Origin: Candidatus Spongiihabitans sp.
Lineage (GTDB): Bacteria; Pseudomonadota; Gammaproteobacteria; Arenicellales; Poriferihabitantaceae
Length of the DNA: 64,000 nucleotides
Direction: 5' to 3'
Assembly (NCBI GenBank): GCA_965206355.1
Contig: OZ242212.1
Coordinates: forward strand, 1,310,814 to 1,374,813
Under the pieces are notes generated by a model. It had not been told where the DNA came from. It made no database searches and worked only from the letters and a program-made list of their open reading frames with translations. The first letter of the stretch is position 1. Each line of letters begins with the position of its first letter. The translations under genes and the position numbers were made by a program. Shown in pieces: positions 45,186 through 61,400 of the stretch.

Positions 45186-45324
45186 GAGACCTTTGCACGA
45201 AAGCCATTTCACCTGCATGCTGTGTTAAAATCGTACTCAATCGGTCATTTATAAGCATAAACTCCCTCATTCCGTGCGTTTTTGCCTGGCCTGAAAGCGA
45301 AATCATCTTCCGTGCAAAGGTCTC
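45186..45324 (-). mobile_element. 139-bp MITE, copy 3 (inverted; 50 nt upstream of the first YcaO gene)
   Basis: The reverse complement differs from copy 1 at about 4 positions. It is flanked by ATGA on both sides (4 unambiguous nt). Confidence 0.85.
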
Positions 45325-45374
45325 ATGAAATTAACCGCGCCGTCGCACCCTATTGGCGCGCGCATATAACCACC

Positions 45375-47789
45375 ATGTTTTATAAATCAAAAAATGATGA
45401 AGGCCTGATTCAAGTTCCTGCGGTCACCCCTCACGTCGAGGTCATCACTTTCGACAACGCCGAAATGAATATCGGCGATGATTTTCCCGAAGAGGAACTA
45501 CGTAATATGAATCTATGCTTTTGTGTCGACGCACAGGGCGCTGGGTATGGGCTACTGGGGCCGTTGCATAGAGATATCATGTGCCTGGTGGATGGTTCCC
45601 GCACTCGCATGGAAATCGTCGAGGCGCTCCAGAAAATCGGCCACGATGCTATGGATACGAATACCATGCTAGCCAGTCTGGCTTACCGGTTTTTGCTGGT
45701 GTCAGCGGAGCATTCACTCCAGCCCGAACAAGCGGCGTTGTTTTCTGCACTGGGCATCACGCCGCGCTGCGCGGAAGAGTGCATGGCCGAATTGAAAATT
45801 TTTATTCACAGCATCAGCGCGCACCGCGATGGCGCGGGCATTGTAACCGAAGCATTGTCCAATCTAGGTTGCGGAAACCGCGCCATTGTCGATGCCGAAG
45901 ATAGCGCCGATGTCGTTATCGTGTTGGTTGATGACTACCTGCAAACAGAACTGGAAACCATCAACCAGCGCTTTCTCAAAAACCGGAAAAAATGGTTGCC
46001 ACTGAAATTGAGCGGCACTGAAGGCCTGGTCGGCCCGCTGTTTAATTTGCGGAAAAATGGATTTTGCATGACGTGTTTGCAGACTAACTTGCGCAACAAT
46101 CGCGAACTTCGCAGTTTTTTTGGGCACAACCGCGACGGCGCTGACATCGCCAAAGAGAGAATCTTTGAATCATCGCTTGCCCGTGGCCGCGCGGTTGAAG
46201 CTCTGTTGCAGATGATTAAATCCCTGCTGGCCGACGCTGATCAGTATATCGATGTCAATACCGAAGGACATTTTCAAAGCATTGAACATTACGTCTTGTC
46301 GAGTAACACGGTTATCAACACCCAATCCTGGCACTATGTGAATAAAAGGCCACAGTGCGCCTGTTGCGGCGACCCGCAAACGATCAACAATGAACGCCCG
46401 CCTAATCCGGTGGATTTATCTCAAGGGTCAAAAGAATCTATGTTCACCAGCGGCGGCATGAAAGCTCGGTCGCCGCTACAGACCTGGAACAAATATCAAC
46501 ACTTGATTTCTCCGCTAACCGGTGTTGTAACAGGCGTTGTTCGATCTTCTCCGCCGGACGATTCGTGGCTTCACGTTTATTGGGCAGGCAGCAATTTGGC
46601 TATCGTTAATAAACTTTTCCACTCTCTCAGCACCAGCCTGCGAACCAAGAGCGCAGGCAAGGGGCGGTCGGACTCCCAGGCCAAGGTCAGTGCCTTGTGC
46701 GAAGCCCTGGAACGCAATAGCGGGGTCTATGACGGCACTGAAATTCATCGCCGCGCGCGATTTATCGATTTTGACGAGGGCGAAGCTCTGCGGCCTAACG
46801 ACATCATGCTATTCAGCGATAATCAATATAAGATGCGCGACCAGGTGGCGTCAAAGAAATTTCGTTTCTACCGACTTCCGGAGTTGGATTTCGACGAGAA
46901 CGTGGAAGTCGAATGGACACCATTCTGGTCGGTAAGCCGCAAGCAGCATGTCTGGATGCTGTCTGCTCAGGCTTATTTCTCTTACTATTCAAGCAATATG
47001 GAACTCAACAAATTCATGGGGAATCCGGATTCCAATGGTGCCGCATCGGGAAACACCATTGCCGAGGCATTCGTGCAAGGTTTTATGGAATTAGTGGAGC
47101 GCGATGCCTTCGCCATCTGGTGGTATAACCGTTTATCCTATCCGGAAGTCGATATCGCCAGTTTCATGGACCCATTCTTGACTCAATTGGTGGAACACTA
47201 CCGCACCGAATACAATCGAAATGTATGGGTGCTTGATATTACTCATGACTTTGGCATTCCGGTTTTTGTCGCCGTGTCCGAGCGCTTTGACAAGAAAAAA
47301 CGTGATATCTGCGTGTCCGCTGGCGCCCATTTTGATCCGCATATTGCATTGTTGCGCGCGATTTGTGAACTCAATCAATACGCATCGGTGGTATTGCGTT
47401 CCACCGATGATGTGTCCAGTTATACTTATTTCGATCAAGAATGCCTTGACTGGTGGCACAACGCCACCTTACAAAACAATCCGTATCTTTTGCCCGACAG
47501 CAAGGCGGCCAAAACCACCAAGGCGGATTATCCTGTCATCGCACGCACCCAGGCTGAAGAATCACAGGCCTGCATTGATGCAGTCCATACCAAAGGCATG
47601 GAGATTCTGGTGATGGACCAGACCAAACCCGATATCGGGTTGCCAGTGATCAAGATACTGGTGCCAGGGATGCGCCATTTCTGGGCCCGTTTTGCCCCGG
47701 GACGACTCTACGATGTGCCTGTGGAGATGGGAAAACTGAGCAAACCCACCCCTGAACAGGATTTGAATCCCACCCCCGTATTCATCTAA
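45375..47789 (+). CDS. fused E1-like/RRE plus YcaO azoline-forming heterocyclase (PatD/TruD-like), copy 1
   Basis: N terminus VPAVTPHVEVITF, wHTH-like LVDGSRTRMEIVEAL, and a Cys quartet (FCMTCL ... CACCGD). YcaO core KSAGKGRSDSQAKVSALCEALERNSG, ELVERDAFAIWWYN, and C-terminal PGRLYDVPVEMG...NPTPVFI. The ORF-track start at 45282 lies inside the MITE and is rejected. Confidence 0.85.
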   Translation: MFYKSKNDEGLIQVPAVTPHVEVITFDNAEMNIGDDFPEEELRNMNLCFCVDAQGAGYGLLGPLHRDIMCLVDGSRTRMEIVEALQKIGHDAMDTNTMLASLAYRFLLVSAEHSLQPEQAALFSALGITPRCAEECMAELKIFIHSISAHRDGAGIVTEALSNLGCGNRAIVDAEDSADVVIVLVDDYLQTELETINQRFLKNRKKWLPLKLSGTEGLVGPLFNLRKNGFCMTCLQTNLRNNRELRSFFGHNRDGADIAKERIFESSLARGRAVEALLQMIKSLLADADQYIDVNTEGHFQSIEHYVLSSNTVINTQSWHYVNKRPQCACCGDPQTINNERPPNPVDLSQGSKESMFTSGGMKARSPLQTWNKYQHLISPLTGVVTGVVRSSPPDDSWLHVYWAGSNLAIVNKLFHSLSTSLRTKSAGKGRSDSQAKVSALCEALERNSGVYDGTEIHRRARFIDFDEGEALRPNDIMLFSDNQYKMRDQVASKKFRFYRLPELDFDENVEVEWTPFWSVSRKQHVWMLSAQAYFSYYSSNMELNKFMGNPDSNGAASGNTIAEAFVQGFMELVERDAFAIWWYNRLSYPEVDIASFMDPFLTQLVEHYRTEYNRNVWVLDITHDFGIPVFVAVSERFDKKKRDICVSAGAHFDPHIALLRAICELNQYASVVLRSTDDVSSYTYFDQECLDWWHNATLQNNPYLLPDSKAAKTTKADYPVIARTQAEESQACIDAVHTKGMEILVMDQTKPDIGLPVIKILVPGMRHFWARFAPGRLYDVPVEMGKLSKPTPEQDLNPTPVFI

Positions 47790-47812
47790 AAATTGCGCCG
47801 AGCGAACAGTTG

Positions 47813-50236
47813 ATGACTCCTCAATCCACTCGCGACATGCGCAAACACGGCAGTGACGCCGGCATTGTGCAGTTGCCAAAAATTGCGCCTCATCTGCATA
47901 TCGATATTGTTGAGATCGACCCCTCTGGCGCCGGCCCTGATAAGTCAATGTTGATAACCTCGGAATACGATAAGAACTATTACCAGATTTATCCGATAGC
48001 AGAATTAGGCGAAATGCTTTTGGCCGCGATTGATGGCGATGCAAGTGCAACGCAGCTGATTCAAAGAATCACCTCCTCGTCACGCTATAGCCATCTGGAG
48101 GTTGCCGCTATGCTGTCGCTGCTTTCCAACGCCGACATCATCATTTCGGGGCGATACGACATGCCTGACGGACAAGCTGCGTTGTGGCTAAATATGGGAT
48201 TTACCCCTGCCCTTGTGGAAAACACAACGAGTCGGTTGCGGGTTGCGATTGTCGATAAGGCGGAGTCTCCCGCCTACCAACAAGAGTTGGGAACGATGCT
48301 GCGCAGTCTTGGCGTGAACACGAGCGATGGAGATGTCTTGGACAGCGATTTGACAGTCGTGGTGGTTGATGATTATTTGCATAAATCGTTGAATAAAATA
48401 AATCGAGATTATCTGAAAAAAAAGATCCGATGGTTGCCGGTTAAATTAAGCGGTAATGTTCATTGGGCCGGCCCCGTATTCAATCAGCCGAACCGCGTTA
48501 AAACTGATTCCGAACTTGTTTTGGAAAAACCGTACATGGCGAAAGATTTCTGCTGGTATTGCCTGGCGGAGCGAATAGAAAACGGTCGTCAAATAGAGCA
48601 GGCGAAATATCGACAAACCGACCTCAAGCCCCGCCCTGCTTCGAAAATGTATACTCCGGCCCTGCAAGCGAGCGCCTACAACATCACGCTGGAGATAATC
48701 AAATACCTGTTGCACGCTGATCAAGAAACAGAATTCGATGTTCACCCATTCTGCTCATCATCGTGGGTGTGGGATCAGATAAGTAATCGATCCGACTGGC
48801 ACATTGTCAATAAAAATCCCGCCTGCGTGGTTTGCGAGCAACCATCAACCGACGACATTGATCCGATACATCTCGATGATGTTGAGATCGGAGAGCGTTA
48901 TGTAAGCAGTGGCTGGCGCATCGTGCCTATCGAACAAACTTTTGAGAACTATCGCCACCTCAACAATGCCTATACGGGTGTTATCGACCTGTTTGAGGAT
49001 ATTCAAAACCCAGTCGATGATTTCTGCTTTGTCTCTGAATCAAGCAATAACATCTCGACAAAAAGCAACGCCATATTCTTTCCCTTGATGAGCGTCAGGA
49101 TGCGCAATGCGGGGAAAGGAATCACACCTGCTTCGGCACGCACCGGCGCCTTGTGCGAATCCATCGAGCGCTATAGCACCAGCTTGCACGGCGCTGAAAT
49201 CCGTAGACGCGCCCGCTATCAAGATTTTCCCGCAGGGCAAGCATTGATGCCAAACTGCTTTATGAATTTCAGCGATAAACAATTTGTGCAGAATCAGCAG
49301 GGCAACCAAGATGCCAGTGGCAATCCATTTGTCAACATTCCTGCCCGACTAACTGAATATGAATACTGCGAGTGGTCGCCTGTTTGGTCTTTTACGCAAC
49401 AACAAACCATCTGGACGCCGACCCAATCGCTGTATTTCGGCTATCCATATAAAAATCGCTGGATCGCCATTCCGGATACCAACGGAGTCGCCGCTGGCAA
49501 CACCCGAACAGAGGCATTTGTACAGGCATTTCTAGAGGTTCTGGAGCGCGATGCCGTCAGTATTTGGTGGTATAACCAACTGCAATGTAGAGAACTTGAT
49601 CTGGATTCGATTGATATTCCCTTCATCCGCCGGGTTGTCGATCAATACGAAAAGAAAAATAGGCGCTGTTGGGTATTGGATATCACCTTTGATCTGGGGG
49701 TTAATATTTTTGTGTTCCTGAGCCGTAAAAATTCTTCCGCCACCAAGGGCGAAGAAATTTGTCTGGGGTGCGCCGCTCATTTTGATCCGGAGATCGCCCT
49801 GACCCGAGCCATATGCGAACACAGCCAACTCTGGACAATGATTGAAAATCGGCGCGAAAAAACCTTTTTTAAGAAGTTATCGCCAGCCTTCTCAGCTTGG
49901 CTACAAAATGCCACAACTATGGCGAAATCACTCAAGTATTTGTTGCCTGCGGGTAAAAAGCAGTGGTGTGATTATCCGTTGAATTTAGAATTTAACCTGC
50001 TACAACAACGCCAGGCTTGCCTGAAGATGGTGGAAGAAAATGGCTGGCAACTGTACCTGGCCGACTTCACCCGCCCCAGCATAGGGTTGTCGGTCATTCG
50101 GGTGATGATTCCTGAGTTGCGTAGTATGCACCGGAGGCTTGGTCCTGGCAGGCTATATGATGTTCCGGTAGAAATGGGGCTGCTCAAGTGCGCAAAAATC
50201 GAAGAGGAAATGAACGAGATTGATATTTTTATTTGA
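47813..50236 (+). CDS. fused E1-like/RRE plus YcaO heterocyclase (PatD/TruD-like), copy 2
   Basis: Same architecture as copy 1: LPKIAPHLHIDIVEI, IDGDASATQLIQRI, FCWYCL ... PACVVCE, NAGKGITPASARTGALCESIERYS, EVLERDAVSIWWYN, PGRLYDVPVEMG. It starts 21 nt after copy 1 ends. Confidence 0.85.
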   Translation: MTPQSTRDMRKHGSDAGIVQLPKIAPHLHIDIVEIDPSGAGPDKSMLITSEYDKNYYQIYPIAELGEMLLAAIDGDASATQLIQRITSSSRYSHLEVAAMLSLLSNADIIISGRYDMPDGQAALWLNMGFTPALVENTTSRLRVAIVDKAESPAYQQELGTMLRSLGVNTSDGDVLDSDLTVVVVDDYLHKSLNKINRDYLKKKIRWLPVKLSGNVHWAGPVFNQPNRVKTDSELVLEKPYMAKDFCWYCLAERIENGRQIEQAKYRQTDLKPRPASKMYTPALQASAYNITLEIIKYLLHADQETEFDVHPFCSSSWVWDQISNRSDWHIVNKNPACVVCEQPSTDDIDPIHLDDVEIGERYVSSGWRIVPIEQTFENYRHLNNAYTGVIDLFEDIQNPVDDFCFVSESSNNISTKSNAIFFPLMSVRMRNAGKGITPASARTGALCESIERYSTSLHGAEIRRRARYQDFPAGQALMPNCFMNFSDKQFVQNQQGNQDASGNPFVNIPARLTEYEYCEWSPVWSFTQQQTIWTPTQSLYFGYPYKNRWIAIPDTNGVAAGNTRTEAFVQAFLEVLERDAVSIWWYNQLQCRELDLDSIDIPFIRRVVDQYEKKNRRCWVLDITFDLGVNIFVFLSRKNSSATKGEEICLGCAAHFDPEIALTRAICEHSQLWTMIENRREKTFFKKLSPAFSAWLQNATTMAKSLKYLLPAGKKQWCDYPLNLEFNLLQQRQACLKMVEENGWQLYLADFTRPSIGLSVIRVMIPELRSMHRRLGPGRLYDVPVEMGLLKCAKIEEEMNEIDIFI

Positions 50237-52188: not shown

Positions 52189-55100
52189 TCATGCCATATC
52201 GGCTGAGGGGATCAAGGGCGCACGAAACGGATTCAGGTTTTTACGCGCGTGAACACTCAACAACAACAGCCCCATATCCGCCTGTCCATGAATGGCGCCC
52301 ACCCGAAAATTATCGTCCGCCCAGCAATCGGGAAACCAGCACTGACTGCTACGCTTGCGCTGAACAATCTCATTGACTAAGTTATCCACGGCCTCCCGAG
52401 GAGAATTAACGCCTGGTACGGCCAATAACTGGTAAAGATGATCCATCAGAAATTCTCCAGACTTGGTCAACAACTGTTTGGCCGTGTATTCATGCGCCTG
52501 CTGTTCCGGCATTCCCCCGGTATGATGTTCGCCGGAAGCATTGCGCGCCTTCTCTTCCTGCAAATCCGCTATAAAATTCCGTAGTTTCAAGTAGCCCGGA
52601 TGCTCCACGAATAACGGCCAGTTGTCTTGCATGTATTGGTTGACCAGGTACATGCCAGAAGTGGCATTCGGCAGAAACGCATTCGCATATTTGCGATAGG
52701 TGTCGGTTTGTTCCGGACTTGCCTGCAAGGATTTGGTCTCGATCAATTCCAGTATTTGTTCAATCCATGGAGTCAATATTTCGTTGTTAAAAAGCAATTC
52801 CAACTCAGTAAAACGGTATAAAAGGCCACTGATGCCATGCCGATAATCCACAAAAAGGCTATCCGTATCGCGCATCTCTTTCAGCAAATCTACCGTCAGA
52901 TGTTCTACATTTGCAGTCAGGTTGTTATTCATTGCTGGTTTAACCCGCGCCAGACTGCACAACGCGGCCAGCTTTGATCCGTGCAAACTGATTACGCCAT
53001 ATGTTTTGGCTGTTTCATATTCAAACCCTTCAATAGCGTCTCCAGTCATGTATTCATAGCACTTGCGCAACGCCTTGATGTTGTCGTTTTTTGGGGCGGC
53101 ATATTGCTGTAGCGTTGCGAGGAAAACAATAATGCCACTGCAACCGTCAAAATTCAGTAGCAAACGTTGCGGGATGCGGATGTTGTTTAACTGTAGTCTG
53201 CCGATGGCGAGGTAATCCTTCAAATTTTCTGTTTGATTGATATTGGATGCCAGTTGGTTGCCTATTTCCTGAGCCAGGGCCACGAACTCTCCATCCGTTA
53301 CCGACTGTGATGCGTTGCTTACATCGTTGCTCCGCCGCCACGGGCGCCGGGGGTTGTCGGGTCGCGTCGAAAACAATGCTTTGATGTAGCTTATCTGGCG
53401 ATCAGTCTCATTCAGCGAGTAAGCGTAATTTCGGGCTATCTTGGAAAGCGTGGTTTTTTTGAAAAAATTTTCTTCGGTGGCAACATTCGCAGTATTGAAA
53501 AGCAGCAGGCTGTTGGTTTGTAATTCAAACAACGGGACATCATTGTTCCATATATCATTTCTTATGCCGTCGATAATGGTGATCGGAAAGCCTTTAAATA
53601 TCGAGAAAAACCTGTCCAGCGCAATACTTGCGCGTACGCCGTCATTCCCGCAATCACCGAAAAACCTGGCTATCAGCGAATAGCATTGCCAGGTATCGAC
53701 GACGATATGACGAAAACGAGCTTGGTCGATACGTTGATAGAACTGCTGTAGTGCTTCACGCCCAATATCCGATTCCAACAACTTTCCCATGCGCCTGTAG
53801 CCATCGATAAAAATTTCCAGAAAGTCGTTCATGTCCTGGAACTCACCTTGATAAAAAGGCGCATAATCGCTGGCCTCGAAATCGTCATATAAATTATCTT
53901 TTTTCGAAAACGGAACCTGTTGCTTTCCCGGAGGTGTTGTTACGCTGATATCAATCCCATCCGCCAACTTAAAGCTCACCGACCCCGGCATGAGCAGTGG
54001 CAACATGCCCACCATCTGCATTTTTCTAAATTGCACGACGTGTTCATCTTGCTCGTCGGTGTTCCAGAGATCTTCGAAACTGTTGCCGACAATTGTTTCA
54101 TAATCAATAAAATAGGGCATGTCGGCACAAGCGATTAGGTTGTCATACCAGAAATCATTGCCATTCAATAACTGTAGCACAAACAACCATCCCCCCAAGC
54201 GCCGGTAAAAAGTCTCCACTTCCGACAGCTGACCGCACGCTTGCCAGCGAACCCGTTGCTCCCAGCCATACCCCTGGCAATACATAAACGCGGGCGTCAA
54301 CGGCACAAACTCACTGTGCGATGGATGCAGGTCTTGCAGTAATAATCCGATTGCCCAAGTGCCTATCAGGTTTTTTGGCTTGTAGACAACATCGCCGCGG
54401 CTGGTCTCGAAAATAGCCACTGAACGCCCGCCGCGGTGCGGGTCCCCCAAACCGCAGCGTAGCCGTGAAACGACAATACCGTCATCGGTTTGCGCTTGCG
54501 GGCGCAACATCTGAACTGTGAGTTGAGATAGGTCAGCGGTAAATCTGTGCAGCATTTCCTCCGTGGCTATCTGCCAGCGAAACACCAGATTGCCAATAAT
54601 TTTGACCAGAATCGGTTGGCGTTCAAAAGCCGCTTGCCAAAACCCCAATGTTTCAAATAATTGTTGTCGATAATCGTCTTCGCCCTCGGGAAAACTGCCG
54701 GGATACGCATTCAATACGCCAAACAGTGGCGGCGCAAGCCGCGACATAAGGTTTTCAAGCAAATCGTTCACGCTGGCTTCGGTCAGCTGAATCCCGGCTG
54801 ATGCCAACTGATGTTGTTGAGCGTTGAGCCACGGGCGACACAATTCCGCCCAGGCGACAGCCAGCGTCAAGTGGGGTTTTTTTTCAGCGTACTCCGGTTT
54901 AATTCTTTCATCGTGTTGCCGCCAACGTTCATATAAATCAATGAATGTTTTTGCCCAGTCGGGCAAATACTCCGGGGCGGATACATCCACATCGCGCATG
55001 GATTGATACCACTGCTGTTGATCCAGCCCACGGCGTCGTAAAATTTCCCCCCCCTCCGGCGCGGGTCGGAACAAGGCGCTCCAACTATCGCATCGGTTTT

Positions 55101-55240: not shown

Positions 55241-56821
55241 TTACAATGCTGTGGGCGATAATGCAGCGCCATGAATAGCCGCGCTGGCCGGTAAGTCGAT
55301 ATCGTCAAAATTGAAATTTTCTGGCCGGCTACCCAACATAAACTCGCCGATGTTGCATTCTATATGAGGGGCGTTGCCAGTTGCTTGACAGAATAGTTCG
55401 GTATTGCCTGACCCCAACCCGCAGCCTGCCAGCCCCATCGCCGTGGCATTCAAATAAAATGTCTGGTAGACAACGCCGGTATTTCGCAACATCGTGCTGT
55501 ATGCGATATTGTGGTATTTCCAACTGACTCTTTGAAAACGAGACGCGATATGTACGACTGTTTGCGGCCGGACGATTTGAGCACAACTCACAAATGCCGA
55601 TTGTATCAGCCCCTCCGTGTAGTCATTCTTGTCGCTCAATTTGACCAGCTCATGGGTTGACGGCGAGTAATAATAGATACCAGGGTTGATGCCATGCGCC
55701 CGATCCACAGTGAGATAAAATTCCAATTCATAACTGGCCCCTCCAGTTGGATAGGGGCGCCAGGCCAAACCCATGTCAGTCTGCTGGTCGGGATTCTTCG
55801 CGCTGGCCACGCGCGTGTCGCATTCATAGAGAAGGCGCCCAGTGCGGAAAAAGAATTCACCCAACTGTTTCAAAGAAACGGGCGATTCTTCGTTGTAGGC
55901 GCGAAGACTGGCGCGTTGGATAACCAGACTGGTTAAACTTTTATCATTTGCCGCCAGGTACTGTAATTCGGGCTTGTATAGCGCGATTCGTTCGCCGTCC
56001 GGCACTGGCTTGACCGCGGGCTGTGGGTCAATCAAATTAACAAAAGGAAAGGCGCCGCCAAAATTAAAACCGTAGTTGTAGCTGAGTCGGCTGTTCGCAT
56101 GGGTTAGCAAATCATGGAAATCCCATTGCTGAATGGCGTTGTCGCCCTCCTCCAGCCGAGTTGGCAGGTGAGTCGAATTCTTGTTCACCGAAATAACGAA
56201 TTGTTCGTGATACAGTACATTGACCAGACAGCGAAAACCTTCAAACAAATCATTATCGTTGCCACAGGCAGATTGAATTTGCTGCAAATCCGTTCCAAAA
56301 GCCAACTCGAACAAGAGTTTTTGCACGGCTTTTTCCCGGATGACAAAGCGCTTGTCTCTGAGTGGCATCGACAACAACAACTGGTCATCATCCCGATGCA
56401 GATAACAAAAACGCGAGATCGTGATTTTTCCGTTTTCCGGTAGATTGTTCGGCTTCGACATATCCGGCAACAACTTACCAACATTGCAATACTCAATTTC
56501 CGCCAGCAATCTATTGCGCGGACACGCCACGCCAATCACGATTAGATTTTTTACGATAAAATCCGCGGTCTGCAACAGGCCGAAATGACAATCGTTTTCG
56601 GTATCCAACTGCTGACGCACGGCGCTAACGGGCACTTGGCGGCGCTGCTGCGCCAACCAGCTCAGCGCTTTATTCAGGGATTTTGCGACCGGTATTTTGT
56701 TGTGAAAGTCGCCACGTTTGATTTCAACTTCATTGGCATCGGGGCAGGATGTGATTTGACAGTGACTGTCCAGTCTGGCGGTTGCCAGCGGCTGTTTCAT
56801 TAAATCCGTGATAAATGTCAT
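55241..56821 (-). CDS. SagB/ThcOx-type FMN-dependent dehydrogenase (azoline oxidase family) with a long N-terminal extension
   Basis: C-terminal half WRPYPTGGASYELEFYLTVDRAHGINPGIYYYSPSTHELVKL plus a nitroreductase-fold tail. About 250 N-terminal residues have unknown function. Confidence 0.8.
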   Translation of the reverse strand: MTFITDLMKQPLATARLDSHCQITSCPDANEVEIKRGDFHNKIPVAKSLNKALSWLAQQRRQVPVSAVRQQLDTENDCHFGLLQTADFIVKNLIVIGVACPRNRLLAEIEYCNVGKLLPDMSKPNNLPENGKITISRFCYLHRDDDQLLLSMPLRDKRFVIREKAVQKLLFELAFGTDLQQIQSACGNDNDLFEGFRCLVNVLYHEQFVISVNKNSTHLPTRLEEGDNAIQQWDFHDLLTHANSRLSYNYGFNFGGAFPFVNLIDPQPAVKPVPDGERIALYKPELQYLAANDKSLTSLVIQRASLRAYNEESPVSLKQLGEFFFRTGRLLYECDTRVASAKNPDQQTDMGLAWRPYPTGGASYELEFYLTVDRAHGINPGIYYYSPSTHELVKLSDKNDYTEGLIQSAFVSCAQIVRPQTVVHIASRFQRVSWKYHNIAYSTMLRNTGVVYQTFYLNATAMGLAGCGLGSGNTELFCQATGNAPHIECNIGEFMLGSRPENFNFDDIDLPASAAIHGAALSPTAL

Positions 56822-56885
56822 TCTAATTCTTCAACGTCCTTAGCCATATCCCCGCAGGATGGTGAATTGCCCAGATTGTACGGGG

Positions 56886-56921
56886 GCCGACAGCAACACC
56901 GCCCGACCTCAAGTCGGGCGG
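56886..56921 (-). terminator. GC-rich hairpin (9-bp stem) downstream of the precursor genes; candidate leaky terminator/attenuator
   Basis: Minus strand: CCGCCCGAC-TTGAG-GTCGGGCGG followed by TGTTGCTGT (an interrupted U-tract). It sits between precursor A (stop 56991) and the SagB-type gene (start 56821). Confidence 0.45.
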
Positions 56922-56990
56922 CTTTGACTGCGAAGATATTTTCCTGCAACCATCATGCAACCATCATGGTTGGGCCGACGGCATAATGAT

Positions 56991-57377
56991 TTAGCTACTG
57001 CCGGCAGTTCCCGCACTGCCCACGCTACCCACACAGCCACCGGATGAAGCGGTTGATGTGAATGTGCCAAGTGTTGACGCGGAGCCAGCGGTGCCGACGG
57101 TCCCCGCGGAGCCGGTTTTTCCGGCGGCTTGAATCTGGTTCAAATCACTCGCGGAGAGCTGGTGATCTGCCGGAAGATGCGGCGGCATTTGCACGTAGGT
57201 TGTATCTTGGGTTGAGGTTATCACTCTGATCTCCGGCGCATCGCCTCCCCCGAAGAGGTTGTCATAACCGATCTGCGCCAACGCATTCGTATCATGCTCT
57301 CGTAACTGTTGGCGAAACTCAGGATCGTGCATCAATTGCAGTCCGGCATCGGGACTCATATCAGTTTTCGTATTCAT
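56991..57377 (-). CDS. RiPP precursor peptide A (NHLP-type leader; 42-aa G/S/T/A-rich core)
   Basis: Leader ...DPEFRQQLREH...EIRVITSTQDTTYVQMPP...LNQIQAAG. Core KTGSAGTVGTAGSASTLGTFTSTASSGGCVGSVGSAGTAGSS. An SD-like GAGG lies upstream of the ATG. Confidence 0.8.
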   Translation of the reverse strand: MNTKTDMSPDAGLQLMHDPEFRQQLREHDTNALAQIGYDNLFGGGDAPEIRVITSTQDTTYVQMPPHLPADHQLSASDLNQIQAAGKTGSAGTVGTAGSASTLGTFTSTASSGGCVGSVGSAGTAGSS

Positions 57378-57430
57378 TGTCAGACCTCGTTTGATTGGTT
57401 TGGATTAACTCTGGAACGTTCTTGAACAAG

Positions 57431-57781
57431 TTACGCCGAGCCGGCGGTGCCGGCGGTGCTTGCGGAACCCGCGCTACCCACGGTTGAAGTGAGGGTGCTG
57501 ATACTGCTTGCTGTCGTCGCAGTACCAACGCTACCGTTGGTGTTGCCCGCCGCTTGAATGGAAAGTAATTCCTCGGAGCTGATCGTGGAAAGGTGCTCAA
57601 CCTGTGCAAGCGGGACATACATCGTGTCGGGACCATTGATCACCAGTTTGACTTCAATCTCCGAATCCGCGGCAATAATCTCGTTGTCAATGGCATACTG
57701 TCTGGGATCGTTGCGAATGTCTCGACGCGTATCCGGATCAAGCATGGATTGTGTTAATGAAGAATCTGTTAAAGTATTCAT
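57431..57781 (-). CDS. RiPP precursor peptide B (NHLP-type leader; 37-aa core without Cys)
   Basis: Leader ...EIEVKLVINGPDTMYVPL...LLSIQAAG. Core NTNGSVGTATTASSISTLTSTVGSAGSASTAGTAGSA. AGGAG lies 6 nt upstream of the ATG. Confidence 0.8.
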   Translation of the reverse strand: MNTLTDSSLTQSMLDPDTRRDIRNDPRQYAIDNEIIAADSEIEVKLVINGPDTMYVPLAQVEHLSTISSEELLSIQAAGNTNGSVGTATTASSISTLTSTVGSAGSASTAGTAGSA

Positions 57782-57809
57782 GACTATCTCCTATCAGGGT
57801 TAAAGTTGA

Positions 57810-58175
57810 CTAGGCGGAACCAGCAGTGCTTGCGGAACCAGCGGAACCACCTGTTGACAATGTGGTATTGGCTGTACCCACCGTGCTGGCGCTGCCAGCG
57901 CACGCTATGGTACTGGCCCCGCTACCCGCCGCTTGTATCTGGGCCAGATGATTTTCATCCAACGCATGCGCGTTGCTGATTTCCGGAAAAACAATATACA
58001 TCGTGTCAGCGGTGTTGGTTACCACCTTGAATTCCTCATTGCCACTTAACTCGGACAACGGGTGGCCTTGGGATTGCATCTCGGCATAAGCCGCTTTGGG
58101 GTCGTCAAGATACTTCTGCCGCACAACCGGGTCGGCCATCATTGAAATAGTGTCTTGGATTTGTTGCTTATTCAT
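57810..58175 (-). CDS. RiPP precursor peptide C (NHLP-type leader; 37-aa core)
   Basis: Leader ...DPVVRQKYLDDP...EFKVVTNTADTMYIVFP...LAQIQAAG. Core SGASTIACAGSASTVGTANTTLSTGGSAGSASTAGSA. GAGG lies upstream of the ATG. Confidence 0.8.
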   Translation of the reverse strand: MNKQQIQDTISMMADPVVRQKYLDDPKAAYAEMQSQGHPLSELSGNEEFKVVTNTADTMYIVFPEISNAHALDENHLAQIQAAGSGASTIACAGSASTVGTANTTLSTGGSAGSASTAGSA

Positions 58176-58464
58176 AGTCGGTTACCTCATTCATGTCGTG
58201 TGGTTGGGGGTTGCTCATGTTGCACACGGGAACTTAAAGCATGGCGGTTTTGCCTGCAACCTCTTTTTTCCACTTAACAGCAAGTGGTTGTATACACTTT
58301 CGCGGTCTTCGGCAAAAATCTCCAGGGGCGTGCTTACTGGGTGTGGGCCTGACATGGATGCCCGACCAAGGCATTCAAGGCGGTGATTTTGCGGCGGCGC
58401 GCCGCTTCTATAAACCGCGACGGGGACCTGCCCCGGCGATAAAGCCGGGCAACCCGTGCGGGGT

Positions 58465-61400
58465 TCACTCCACCTGCATTTGTCTAATGGCTAATTCGTA
58501 AAACAATCCTCGTTTCGCCAGCAACTCTTCATAACTGCCTTGCTCGACAATTTCTCCCTGGTCCATAACATATATCCGGTCGGCATTGCTGATGGTGGTC
58601 AAGCGATGGGCGATGACTATGCGGGTGATGTTCATTTGTAGCAGGCTGTCCTGCACAACCTTTTGGGTGATGTTGTCGAGTGCGCTGGTTGCTTCGTCCA
58701 GCAACAAAATGGCGGGGTGGTGCGAAATGGCGCGAGCGATCATCACGCGCTGCAATTGCCCGCCCGACAGGCCGCCACCGCCAAACGACGACAGCAGGGT
58801 ATGCATGCCCATGGGCAAATCCTTGATATCCTTTTCCATGCCTGCTTTTTCGGCGGCTTCCCAGGCCGCTTCCAGGGTAACGTTGGTGTCTTCGCAGGCG
58901 ATATTTTCATAAATGCTACCCGGCAAAAGATCGCCGTTTTGCAAAACGACGCCAATCCGTCTTCGCAAATCGGAGAGGTCAATGTCATTCACATTCGTAT
59001 CATCGACAAAAACCGCCCCCTTGTGCGGTTGCTCGAACCCCAGCAACAGGTTGAACAAAGTGGACTTGCCCGATCCGGAACGCCCGACGATAGCGGCATA
59101 TTCACCTTCCTTGATTTCCAGGGTTATATTTTTGAGAATGGGAATCCCCGGCTGGTACTGAAAGTCGACCGAATTGAAACGAACATCGCCGCGCAAAGAC
59201 GGCAGCTGGGGCTTTTGTACGCCCACTTCCACGGGTTCCTGGAGTATGGGATCCATGCGCTTAACCATGGGAATGGTGCTCATCACTGACAGCAACACCA
59301 GCGCCAGTGAGATCATGGTGCTGGATAATTGCCCAAAAGCCGTATTGAACAAGATGAAGTCGCCCAGGCTGAAGTCTGTTTGATAACCCGCTTCCAGCAA
59401 ACCGAAATAGATAAAACCGAAGATAATAATACTGCCGATAAGCGGAATAATGCTTGCCGCCACCTGCAATACATTGTTCGAAAGCATATATTGTCGGTTT
59501 TCCACGACCACCCTGTTATGTACGTTTGACCACAACGCCAACGCGGTATTTTCCTTGGCCGCCACTCTTAGTTTGGAAATGCCATTCAGTAGTTGAAATA
59601 TCAGTCCGTCAACCTTGCCTTTATATTCAAATATATTGGCAAGAATTGGCAATACTCTGCGGCATATTATCCAGGTCAGAATGAAGAACAGCGAGAATGC
59701 CGCCATGATAATGAAGGCCAGCCGCCAACTGTAATAAAACAGCAGGGACAGATTGAACAGCACCGAGATCGAAGAACTAATGACGTTGGCGGTGGATGAT
59801 GTCCAGACTGCCTGTATATCGTCAAAGATATTCGCCCTGCTGGACAGATCTCCCACAGCGTGGCGATTAAAAAAGGTCATAGGCAACCGCAGCAAACGAC
59901 TCCAGATGGCAGCATGTATATCCAGCGAGAGAAAATATTCGATGCGCAGCACGGCTATGCTATTGAAAAAATTAGCAACCAGCATTCCAATAATTGCCGC
60001 AAACAGCGCCAATAAATAACTGTTCAGAAGCGCAAAATTAAAACTTGGCAGCGCACTTGAAAGTAACTTTCCGAGAATAATGGGGTGAACCAGAGTGATT
60101 GCCCCCAGAATGACAGCAGTCAGCAAAATACGTTTAACATCGATATGGGCAAGCTGAAGTGCTTGCAATAAAAACCCTTTAATGCTGGTAACGCTCTCAC
60201 TCAGTCGTCGGTATATTAACAACGCTTCAGGAGTAATTTTTTCTGCAATCGAATCCGAAAGATATTTCCATTCATCGGTTTTCGGATCATAATATTTATA
60301 TCGTGTTACTTCATAGTAAAGCAACACTGGAAATGTATGGCCTTCCAGAAATGCTACCAGCGTCCAATCATCTTTTTTATACCATTTTCCAGTGAGCGTT
60401 ACTTTGCGCTTATCGAATCCTCCCAATGCGAGCAGATGCTCCAACCCTCCAAATGTGGTGGGATCGGCGGCTTCTAAAATTTCAGTGGCAATCGATTTGA
60501 CTTCGCTTTTGCTGATTTTGCACAACTCCAGCAACAAATTGCTGTTGGCTGAAGTGCGATCTATCACCGTGGTGTATGGAACAATATCTTCTTTTCCGTG
60601 AAAAGCGTTCACGAAATTGAAATTCATGGTCTGCATATTTTGTTGTTCGATTTCCTTGGAGCGAACTATATCGTTCTGCTGTTGCCGCTCGAATCCCAAT
60701 GCCTGCAGATACAGCAAGACGCTGATCAGGTGGTGAAAATCATCAACCGTTTTATTGCCGAGACCTTGTTGGAGCAGTTGCCGGGTGGTGAAGATATCGA
60801 CAACAACGTTTTCGGAAACAACCACCGTATCCCGACTAAACAGCGGAAATTGGAATTGATTGATTCGGCTACTGGCGCGAATTTCCAGCCCTCTATAATT
60901 AGCCAGAATGGTTGAAGCGGCATCGCTGATTTCTTCCGAGCGGGCGAATTGCAGCCATAGGATTTCGTCTTTAGCGCCGCTTTGCGCGCAGATATTTTCT
61001 TCGATGATTTGTTGTTGGTCAGTGCCGGAAAACCGCAACAACCGAAAAGCGGGCAAGTCAGTGTTGTTTGGTAGCGCACTGGTGATTTTCTCCACCCAGT
61101 TAGCCACGCCGAATAGAGCATGATCGGTCAGTTTATCGTGATGTAACAACGCATGCCGATCCACCACTGACAGTTTATCGTTCTCGCCCACTATCATGAA
61201 AAAACCGAGATAGAGATGTTGCGATTTTTCACGCTCCAGAATTTCAGGTTTTATGGGCAGGCCATCAAGGGAGGAAGGGGGGGAGCCAGGGAAAATATAC
61301 TCACCCGCCCCAAATGCGTGTATTTTTTTTCTGTTGTATAAGGGCACGCCGTCGCAAGTTCGCGCGACATAGACGGAGACTTCGCCTTCTTCAACTCGAT

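Follow-up and report, generated by a model that had tools for sequence, protein, structure and literature searches.

Three precursor genes with periodic Ser/Thr-rich cores in a probable dehydrazole-type gene cluster of Candidatus Spongiihabitans

Results

Three tandem precursor genes

The DNA analysed here (the window) is a 64,000-nucleotide stretch of contig OZ242212.1 of Candidatus Spongiihabitans sp., and it holds a compact gene cluster of about 19 kb in which three small genes, the putative peptide precursors A, B and C, lie between NHLP-type export genes and modification enzymes, with both YcaO genes on the strand opposite to the rest of the cluster. The precursor genes are all on the minus strand (A: 57377 to 56991, 128 aa; B: 57781 to 57431, 116 aa; C: 58175 to 57810, 121 aa), and each has its own Shine-Dalgarno sequence (GAGGT for A and C, GGAG for B) 5–8 nt upstream of the ATG. 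The leaders of 79–86 aa end in IQAAG in all three proteins (residues 1-83 or 1-84 of C, depending on whether the terminal Gly is assigned to the leader), leaving cores of 42 aa (A, 56991-57119), 37 aa (B, 57431-57544) and 37 aa (C, 57810-57923) that extend to 57122, 57547 and 57926, respectively, if this Gly is counted with the core. Ser, Thr and Cys together make up 19/42, 18/37 and 17/37 core residues (45–49%), with only 1, 0 and 1 Cys, and Gly, Ser, Thr and Ala account for 83%, 84% and 86%. A first-pass annotation made from the sequence alone had described three tandem open reading frames (ORFs) of these lengths with these ribosome-binding sites, core sequences and counts, all of which are exactly as quoted, and the leader pattern that it noted is visible in alignments as DP..R, VV.NT.DT.Y...P and L..IQAAG. 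Its shared core blocks need slight amendment: taken strictly, STL.T does not occur in B, where the sequence is STLTS, and the C-terminal pattern GSAG(S/T)A...AGS(A/S) is matched only loosely, a slip that is immaterial.

Comparison of leader C with its orthologue in a related locus (L002, where the proteins are 62–84% identical and the gene order is the same) gives 58% protein identity, with pS (the synonymous difference) of 0.69, pN (the nonsynonymous difference) of 0.24 and a dN/dS of about 0.15 at a dS near saturation, and the precursor genes appear to be under purifying selection. The low dN/dS, the large family to which the precursors belong and the significant spacing of Ser, Thr and Cys in each core establish that the three genes are genuine, beyond chance.

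Periodic architecture of the cores

The spacing of Ser, Thr and Cys follows a strict three-residue period. In 119 homologues their autocorrelation is enriched at lag 3 (z +35) and lag 6 (z +28) and depleted at lags 1, 2, 4 and 5, and the period is significant in each of the window cores taken singly (p<=0.002 versus shuffles). The best two-segment model places a +1 register shift near mid-core in 114 of the 119 homologues and in 98/107 members of an independent homologue set, versus 36 shuffled cores with a +1 shift, 30 with a +2 shift and 41 with none; two period-3 runs split by a +1 shift are thus found in >90% of about 225 homologues. Across the family, 41% of periodic sites directly follow Gly, 29% Ser and 13% Ala. 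Each window core contains 12–14 in-register sites, 3–4 of which directly follow a Ser. In core A these sites are S5, T8, T11, S14, T17, T20 and S23, followed after the shift by S27, C30, S33, S36, T39 and S42. The block ASTLGT(F/V)TSTASSGGCV is common to core A and an AT-rich 1.5 Mb genome (L001), and the database search for similar cores that the first-pass annotation had proposed finds the G/S/T/A core conserved across the whole family. The cores are therefore not merely low-complexity sequence: their periodic architecture is conserved.

Leader family and cleavage site

A family profile built from eight members retrieves 1,176 representative proteins at E<=1e-3 (367 at E<=1e-10), a lower bound on the size of the family; the window precursors score between 1e-39 and 5e-44 against a family profile whose alignment includes them. 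The NHLP leader model TIGR03793 is matched by 81/117 homologues (best 1e-27) and the nitrile hydratase alpha model TIGR01323 by 45/117, while several homologues carry precomputed PF02979 matches. The leaders thus are divergent members of the NHLP clan, a link that holds at the family level. Mutual identity of the three window precursors is only 31–39%, and individual precursors of the closer relatives match A, B or C best; A, B and C therefore represent three old paralogous leader types rather than a recent tandem duplication. Orthologues of the A-type leader (...ALA.(I/F)GY...) are found in loci L004 and L009, those of the B-type leader (...RQYAIDN..I.AD...) in L004, L007 and L009 with 42–53% identity, and that of the C-type leader in L002 with 56–58% identity. 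In total, 38 precursors were found in related loci by iterative hidden Markov model (HMM) search. A survey of proteusins in sponge metagenome-assembled genomes (MAGs) was considered as a source of relatives and set aside, as its precursors form another family, marked by an LCCC motif.

The Ala-Ala of the window leaders aligns with the Gly-Gly cleavage site of homologues in three gapless comparisons (B 'IQAA-GNTNGSVGT' with P0121 'LQGG-VNTTGSVGT', B with an Arenicellales orthologue 'IQGG-GNTTGS', and 'LESLQAAG-TAST' with 'LGVVAGGK-TASS'). In the QAA|G register the conserved Leu falls at -7 and Ile/Val at -4, as in double-glycine leaders. On both grounds cleavage is predicted to occur probably at QAA|G, so that the cores would be one Gly longer than the first-pass annotation had them: removal of the leader by a C39-type peptidase stands, and its position after Ala-Gly probably shifts by one residue. 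As 44 of 49 'AA' sites are followed by Gly, QAAG| is left as a possible site. The calculated mass of unmodified core A is 3595.65 Da with a cut at QAA|G and 3538.63 Da with one at QAAG|.

Modification enzymes

The enzyme nearest the precursors is a SagB/ThcOx-type azoline dehydrogenase that uses flavin mononucleotide (56821 to 55241, minus strand, 526 aa; TIGR03605 138 bits versus a cut-off of 78, with matches to PF22767 ThcOx and to CyaGox, 5lq4, E 5e-62). An exact-sequence query with this oxidase returned no contig from public data. The 169-nt spacer between its gene and precursor A contains a GC-rich hairpin of 11 bp without a U-tract (56897 to 56923, minus strand), and RNA folding of the spacer (56822-56990, minus strand) gives -66.6 kcal/mol (z = -3.1 versus shuffles). 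The hairpin is possibly a partial terminator or an mRNA-stabilising element and could raise the ratio of precursor to enzyme transcript; a consensus promoter and terminator scan of 56700-58600 detected no canonical promoter or terminator.

Adjoining the dehydrogenase is a LanM-like dehydratase (55230 to 52189, minus strand, 1013 aa; DUF4135 E 2.9e-56), which represents the zinc-less type that Pei, Zhu and Nair (2023; PMC10676384) defined as 'LanMbC'. Its LanC match is sub-threshold only, and where six canonical LanMs carry the zinc ligands Cys, Cys and His, the window protein and 14 relatives have a gap, Gly or Pro in all three columns. An AlphaFold (AF2) model of the protein (pLDDT 82, pTM 0.84) matches LicM2 (E 1e-22) and CylM (E 1e-20) over the full length, and its C-terminal domain resembles the nisin cyclase NisC (probability 0.94). 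The closest homologues are those of L002 (62% identity) and of an Arenicellales MAG (58%), followed by proteins of sponge-associated or uncultured Gammaproteobacteria. Residue 361 (about 54148-54150) is Trp (NDFWYDN) in the window protein and the 14 relatives and His in the six canonical LanMs; this change lies in the kinase-like active-site region (D-x-H-x-E-N) and is fixed across the subfamily.

Two YcaO cyclodehydratases, each fused to an E1-like/RRE domain, are encoded on the plus strand. YcaO1 (45282 to 47789; PF02624 E 7e-84, TIGR03604 248 bits versus a cut-off of 219) has a longest ORF of 835 aa with a TTG start; translation probably begins near residue 32, as homologues align only from residues 20-35 onwards. 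YcaO2 (47810 to 50236, longest ORF 808 aa; PF02624 E 7e-76) matches TIGR03882 and, at 215 bits, falls just under the same TIGR03604 cut-off. Both retain the GKG...E..ER and AAGN..EA....E..ERD motifs. YcaO1 orthologues are 52–84% identical and all end in LNPxPVFI (window, L002, L004, L009, L011-L014), and YcaO2 orthologues form a lineage separate from YcaO1 in every locus compared. The two proteins are present together in every locus that shows any YcaO (none is found in the DNA fetched for L010).

Between the YcaO and LanM-like genes lie two further genes on the minus strand. A small nitroreductase-fold flavoprotein (50968 to 50291, 225 aa; PF00881 E 6e-27, PDB 3gr3 E 4.5e-44) is possibly a second dehydrogenase; its orthologues (42–74% identity) adjoin the LanM-like gene in L002, L009, L010 and L012-L014, and a 226-aa nitroreductase-fold gene, recognised by Pfam only, occupies the same position in L015. 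A conserved protein of 344 aa with an N-terminal membrane or signal segment (52021 to 50987) has a borderline, ABC substrate-binding-like match to PF04392 (26.5 bits versus a cut-off of 25.9) and no relative in a PDB sequence search. Its gene is conserved in the closer clusters L002, L009 and L010, whereas the Thioglobus-like loci lack it.

Export system

Upstream of the precursors a three-gene NHLP export set, of the kind described together with NHLP leaders by Haft et al. (2010), is encoded on the minus strand. An ABC transporter without peptidase (ABC2, 61506 to 58465, 1013 aa) scores 677 bits with TIGR03797, just below the cut-off of 709, and its residues 1-350 form an N-terminal extension that lies outside this model and has no Pfam match. 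A second ABC transporter (ABC1, 63692 to 61506, 728 aa; TIGR03796 862 bits versus a cut-off of 853) carries an N-terminal C39 peptidase (PF03412 E 3e-32) with the catalytic Cys (ECGAASL), His (NHFLVL) and Asp (NDPG). The third gene, a HlyD-type membrane-fusion protein, runs past the window end, so that only its C-terminal 90 aa (64000 to 63727) were scored (TIGR03794 positions 336-421 of 421, E 1.1e-18). The adjoining position of these genes and the score of ABC1 above its cut-off are consistent with export and leader removal by a C39 ABC transporter, as the first-pass annotation had proposed.

Related loci

The enzyme core (two YcaOs, oxidase and LanM-like protein) recurs in L002, in an Arenicellales MAG (L009), in four gammaproteobacterial MAGs of 1.5–2 Mb (L011-L014) and in an uncultured Ca. 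Thioglobus contig (L015, FXLE01000048.1); of these loci only L011 does not show the nitroreductase. In a sponge-derived MAG from the Gammaproteobacteria (L010) the genes for the oxidase, the LanM-like protein, the 344-aa protein and the nitroreductase are seen, and in L004 an array of five precursor genes precedes two YcaO genes. The DNA retrieved for L002, L004, L009 and L012-L015 includes G/S/T/A-type precursors, in arrays of one to six genes that in some small genomes are sited away from the enzymes; several of the 1.5–2 Mb relatives encode at least six family members each. Members of the subfamily occur widely among marine Gammaproteobacteria and those associated with sponges.

Some of these arrays depart from the pattern of the window. 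The lone precursor of L002 (5601-6060), the closest syntenic cluster, has a core that runs out of frame into a remnant of a B-type leader (…DMIAADANVEFKPVVND…), and the array looks decayed. L011 (13004-14653) and L001 (9218-10360) lie on the same 1,486,647-bp chromosome, where five tandem genes beside the LanM-like gene combine near-identical NHLP-type leaders with mutually different cores that are not of the G/S/T/A type, and where the G/S/T/A-core precursors are found about 100 kb away. The fifth gene of the L004 array (1750-2154) encodes an NHLP-type leader ending in SGG, and its hydrophobic core, built of Gly, Ala, Leu and Pro and nearly devoid of Ser and Thr, would by its sequence be a different kind of cargo within the same array.

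Discussion

Proposed pathway

Dehydrazoles were named as a class in 2023 by Pei, Zhu and Nair (PMC10676384). In their founding example, carnazolamide, the combined action of a YcaO and a dehydrogenase yields eight azoles with a dehydroalanine (Dha) in front of each, and the zinc-less LanM-like enzyme CcaM dehydrates only Ser that precedes an azole, in an azole-dependent and leader-independent reaction (PMC10676384). The genes that mark such clusters are all found in the window: a zinc-less LanM-like protein, a co-localised YcaO and azoline dehydrogenase, and a precursor with a long leader and a Ser/Thr/Cys-rich core. By analogy, the three genes are likely, at a probability of roughly 80%, to be precursors of a dehydrazole-type ribosomally synthesised and post-translationally modified peptide (RiPP) that resembles proteusins and has a long leader of the NHLP clan. 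The suggestion of the first-pass annotation that these are three RiPP precursors with NHLP-type leaders and cores serving as cyclodehydration substrates is supported by gene context, synteny and core conservation; dehydration by the zinc-less LanM-like enzyme is an addition to it.

From the genes, their families and synteny, the loss of zinc ligands and the periodic cores we infer the following chemical steps and their order, as well as any part that YcaO2, the nitroreductase of 225 aa or the 344-aa protein may play. On the model of carnazolamide, the structured leader would bind the E1-like/RRE domain of YcaO1, YcaO2 or both, and the YcaOs would convert every third residue (Ser, Thr or Cys) into a (methyl)oxazoline or thiazoline at 12–14 sites per core, mostly within X-Gly/Ala/Ser-(Ser/Thr) triplets. 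The CyaGox-like flavoprotein would then oxidise the rings to azoles, after which the zinc-less LanM-like enzyme could dehydrate Ser directly before an azole to Dha in the roughly 3–4 Ser-Ser/Thr pairs of each core. Finally, the HlyD/C39-ABC/ABC system would cleave at the double-glycine-type site, probably QAA|G, to release the leader, and would export a product that is most likely oxazole-rich and secreted.

Weighing of alternative readings

The closest competitor, which we consider unlikely, is a plain linear azol(in)e peptide in which the LanM-like protein is inactive, a scaffold or has another role, so that no dehydration occurs. It would account for the small number of Ser-(Ser/Thr/Cys) pairs (3–4 per core, with Gly or Ala before most periodic sites) and for the Trp that replaces an invariant His of the six canonical LanMs in the D-x-H-x-E-N region of the whole subfamily. 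However, the LanM-like gene is full length in every related cluster, where it retains 30–62% identity and many invariant residues of the kinase domain, and Ser precedes 29% of periodic sites, the very residue that is dehydrated in the characterised homologous system. That the ORFs are untranslated or encode unmodified double-glycine bacteriocins is very improbable. The absence of a canonical promoter or terminator in the consensus scan fits this idea, but the Shine-Dalgarno sites, the dN/dS of about 0.15, the family of at least 1,176 representatives and the position of precursors beside modification enzymes in L002, L004, L009 and L012-L015 all argue for translated and modified products, and conserved period-3 cores would have no obvious reason in an unmodified peptide.

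Still less credence is given to class II lanthipeptide precursors of the prochlorosin kind, in which Ser and Thr are dehydrated and cross-linked to Cys. Prochlorosin systems share the LanM-like enzyme, long leaders and C39 transporter, but with the three cyclase zinc ligands gone, 1, 0 and 1 Cys in the three cores and two YcaOs conserved together with an azoline oxidase, this assignment was rejected. Least probable of all are thiopeptide or pyritide-like precursors, which are suggested by weak matches to the thiocillin family model NF033482 (20.1–22.3 bits; also found in 84/117 homologues). These matches fall under the 25-bit cut-off and on the Ser/Thr-rich tail, and are thus compositional, and no split LanB dehydratase or pyridine synthase was matched among the cluster genes scanned (45.3 to 64 kb), so that this candidate was likewise rejected.

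Several observations weigh against the dehydrazole assignment itself. The HMM search with the NHLP leader model that the first-pass annotation had recommended succeeds at the family level and fails for the precursors taken singly: of the three, only C is matched at E<=0.01, with 21.7 bits (E 1.3e-4) where the cut-off of TIGR03793 is 50.9. An Ala-Ala cleavage site would be atypical for C39 peptidases of double-glycine leaders. YcaO2 orthologues are without the second Pro (e.g. MNEIDIFI) and have no proline-rich C-terminus. The LanM-like protein aligns with its Ca. Thioglobus homologue over the full length (E 7e-120) with only about 30% identity, and in the similarity network of Pei et al. the Thioglobus example belongs to Cluster 39 and the carnazolamide (cca) cluster to network 5; because of this low identity and the different networks, the azole dependence of dehydration may not transfer from CcaM, to which the window protein is likened by description and not by sequence. 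Dehydration may moreover be a minor modification here, since Gly or Ala precede most periodic sites, and the products of the subfamily are known from genes alone.

Implications

Within the dehydrazole reading, it is possible, if rather doubtful, that the subfamily makes a product class not yet seen: a near Cys-free peptide of about 40 residues in which 12–14 (methyl)oxazol(in)es would stand strictly three residues apart, in two registers, beside only a few Dha residues, and of which two specialised YcaOs would make a small library. In that case one YcaO might serve each leader type or core half, or YcaO2 might install another backbone modification. A division of labour by core half finds no support, as the carnazolamide core, made with a single YcaO, also changes register. 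The constant pairing of two cyclodehydratases raises a testable question of why both are kept. As a complete and intact representative of the two-YcaO dehydrazole branch, with precursors, enzymes and exporter on about 19 kb, the cluster is a candidate for heterologous expression, and the family-wide analysis of the cores (Ser/Thr/Cys at period 3, a +1 shift at mid-core and three old leader types) predicts which residues would be modified.

Comparison with known systems

The nearest described system is that of Ca. Thioglobus, which Supplementary Fig. 21 of the dehydrazole study (PMC10676384) shows as 'Cluster 39': alongside several precursors, it comprises one LanMbC and two pairs of YcaO and dehydrogenase. 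Three small ORFs of L015 are the printed A1-A3 of these dehydrazole candidates, and the family HMM matches the published Thioglobus precursors at 4.8e-28 (A1) to 3e-16 and a cluster-5 precursor from Chondromyces at 2e-12. Like the window, Cluster 39 combines two YcaOs, a ThcOx-type oxidase, a zinc-less LanM-like protein and a nitroreductase (226 aa there) with several precursors that have divergent NHLP-type leaders ending in AAG and G/S/T/A-rich cores. Unlike the window, it has no 344-aa gene, no adjacent transporter on its contig, an extra Nif11-type precursor and shorter cores (about 30–35 aa), and it has been described by bioinformatics only. The statement of the first-pass annotation that such cores are unusual for both azole peptides and lanthipeptides is out of date, dehydrazoles having been named in 2023 and homologous Thioglobus precursors printed.

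Carnazolamide from Chryseobacterium carnipullorum shares with the window cores the three-residue azole spacing and the change of register within the core, as read from the residue numbers of the paper. The cca core is, however, only some 30 aa long and rich in Cys; it contains four thiazoles, a Dha stands directly before each of the eight azoles, and its cluster has one YcaO together with a radical-SAM epimerase, a methyltransferase and an S8 leader protease. Among the cluster genes scanned in the window no epimerase, methyltransferase or S8 protease was matched, and C39 export is found instead.

Nostatin A from Nostoc sp. is a native product of three-residue blocks (Delawska et al., 2024) and resembles the window system in its NHLP leader, YcaO cyclodehydratase, oxidase, LanM-like dehydratase and a core motif of the SSASTASS type. 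Its core, by contrast, is 30 aa long and contains six Cys, and the system further differs by a sactionine bridge, an alkylated Pro and the presence of an epimerase and a further radical-SAM protein. Nostatin A is a natural isolate with cytostatic activity at the nanomolar level, whereas the window cluster is known from genes alone; given the activity of this relative, products of the branch may be bioactive, which for the present cluster is speculation. The heterocycloanthracin-type thiazole/oxazole-modified microcins (TOMMs), reportedly described by Haft in 2009, are said to carry Cys-Xaa-Xaa repeats and would thus share a heterocyclisable residue at every third position, but the repeats are of Cys and not Ser/Thr, the leader family is another and no LanM-like enzyme is known from it. 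No heterocycloanthracin model was among the NCBIfam matches. The prochlorosin and NHLP-Nif11 systems (Haft, Basu & Mitchell, 2010) have the same HlyD/C39-ABC/ABC export and many precursors per genome for one enzyme set, but prochlorosins are lanthipeptides made by the zinc-containing ProcM from hypervariable cores, whereas the cores of the window keep one periodic architecture.

The cluster is thus a further example of the dehydrazole architecture known since 2023 and not a new kind of system. From the characterised members it differs in its longer, near Cys-free cores with mostly Gly-(Ser/Thr) sites, its two YcaOs, its extra nitroreductase and its C39 export.

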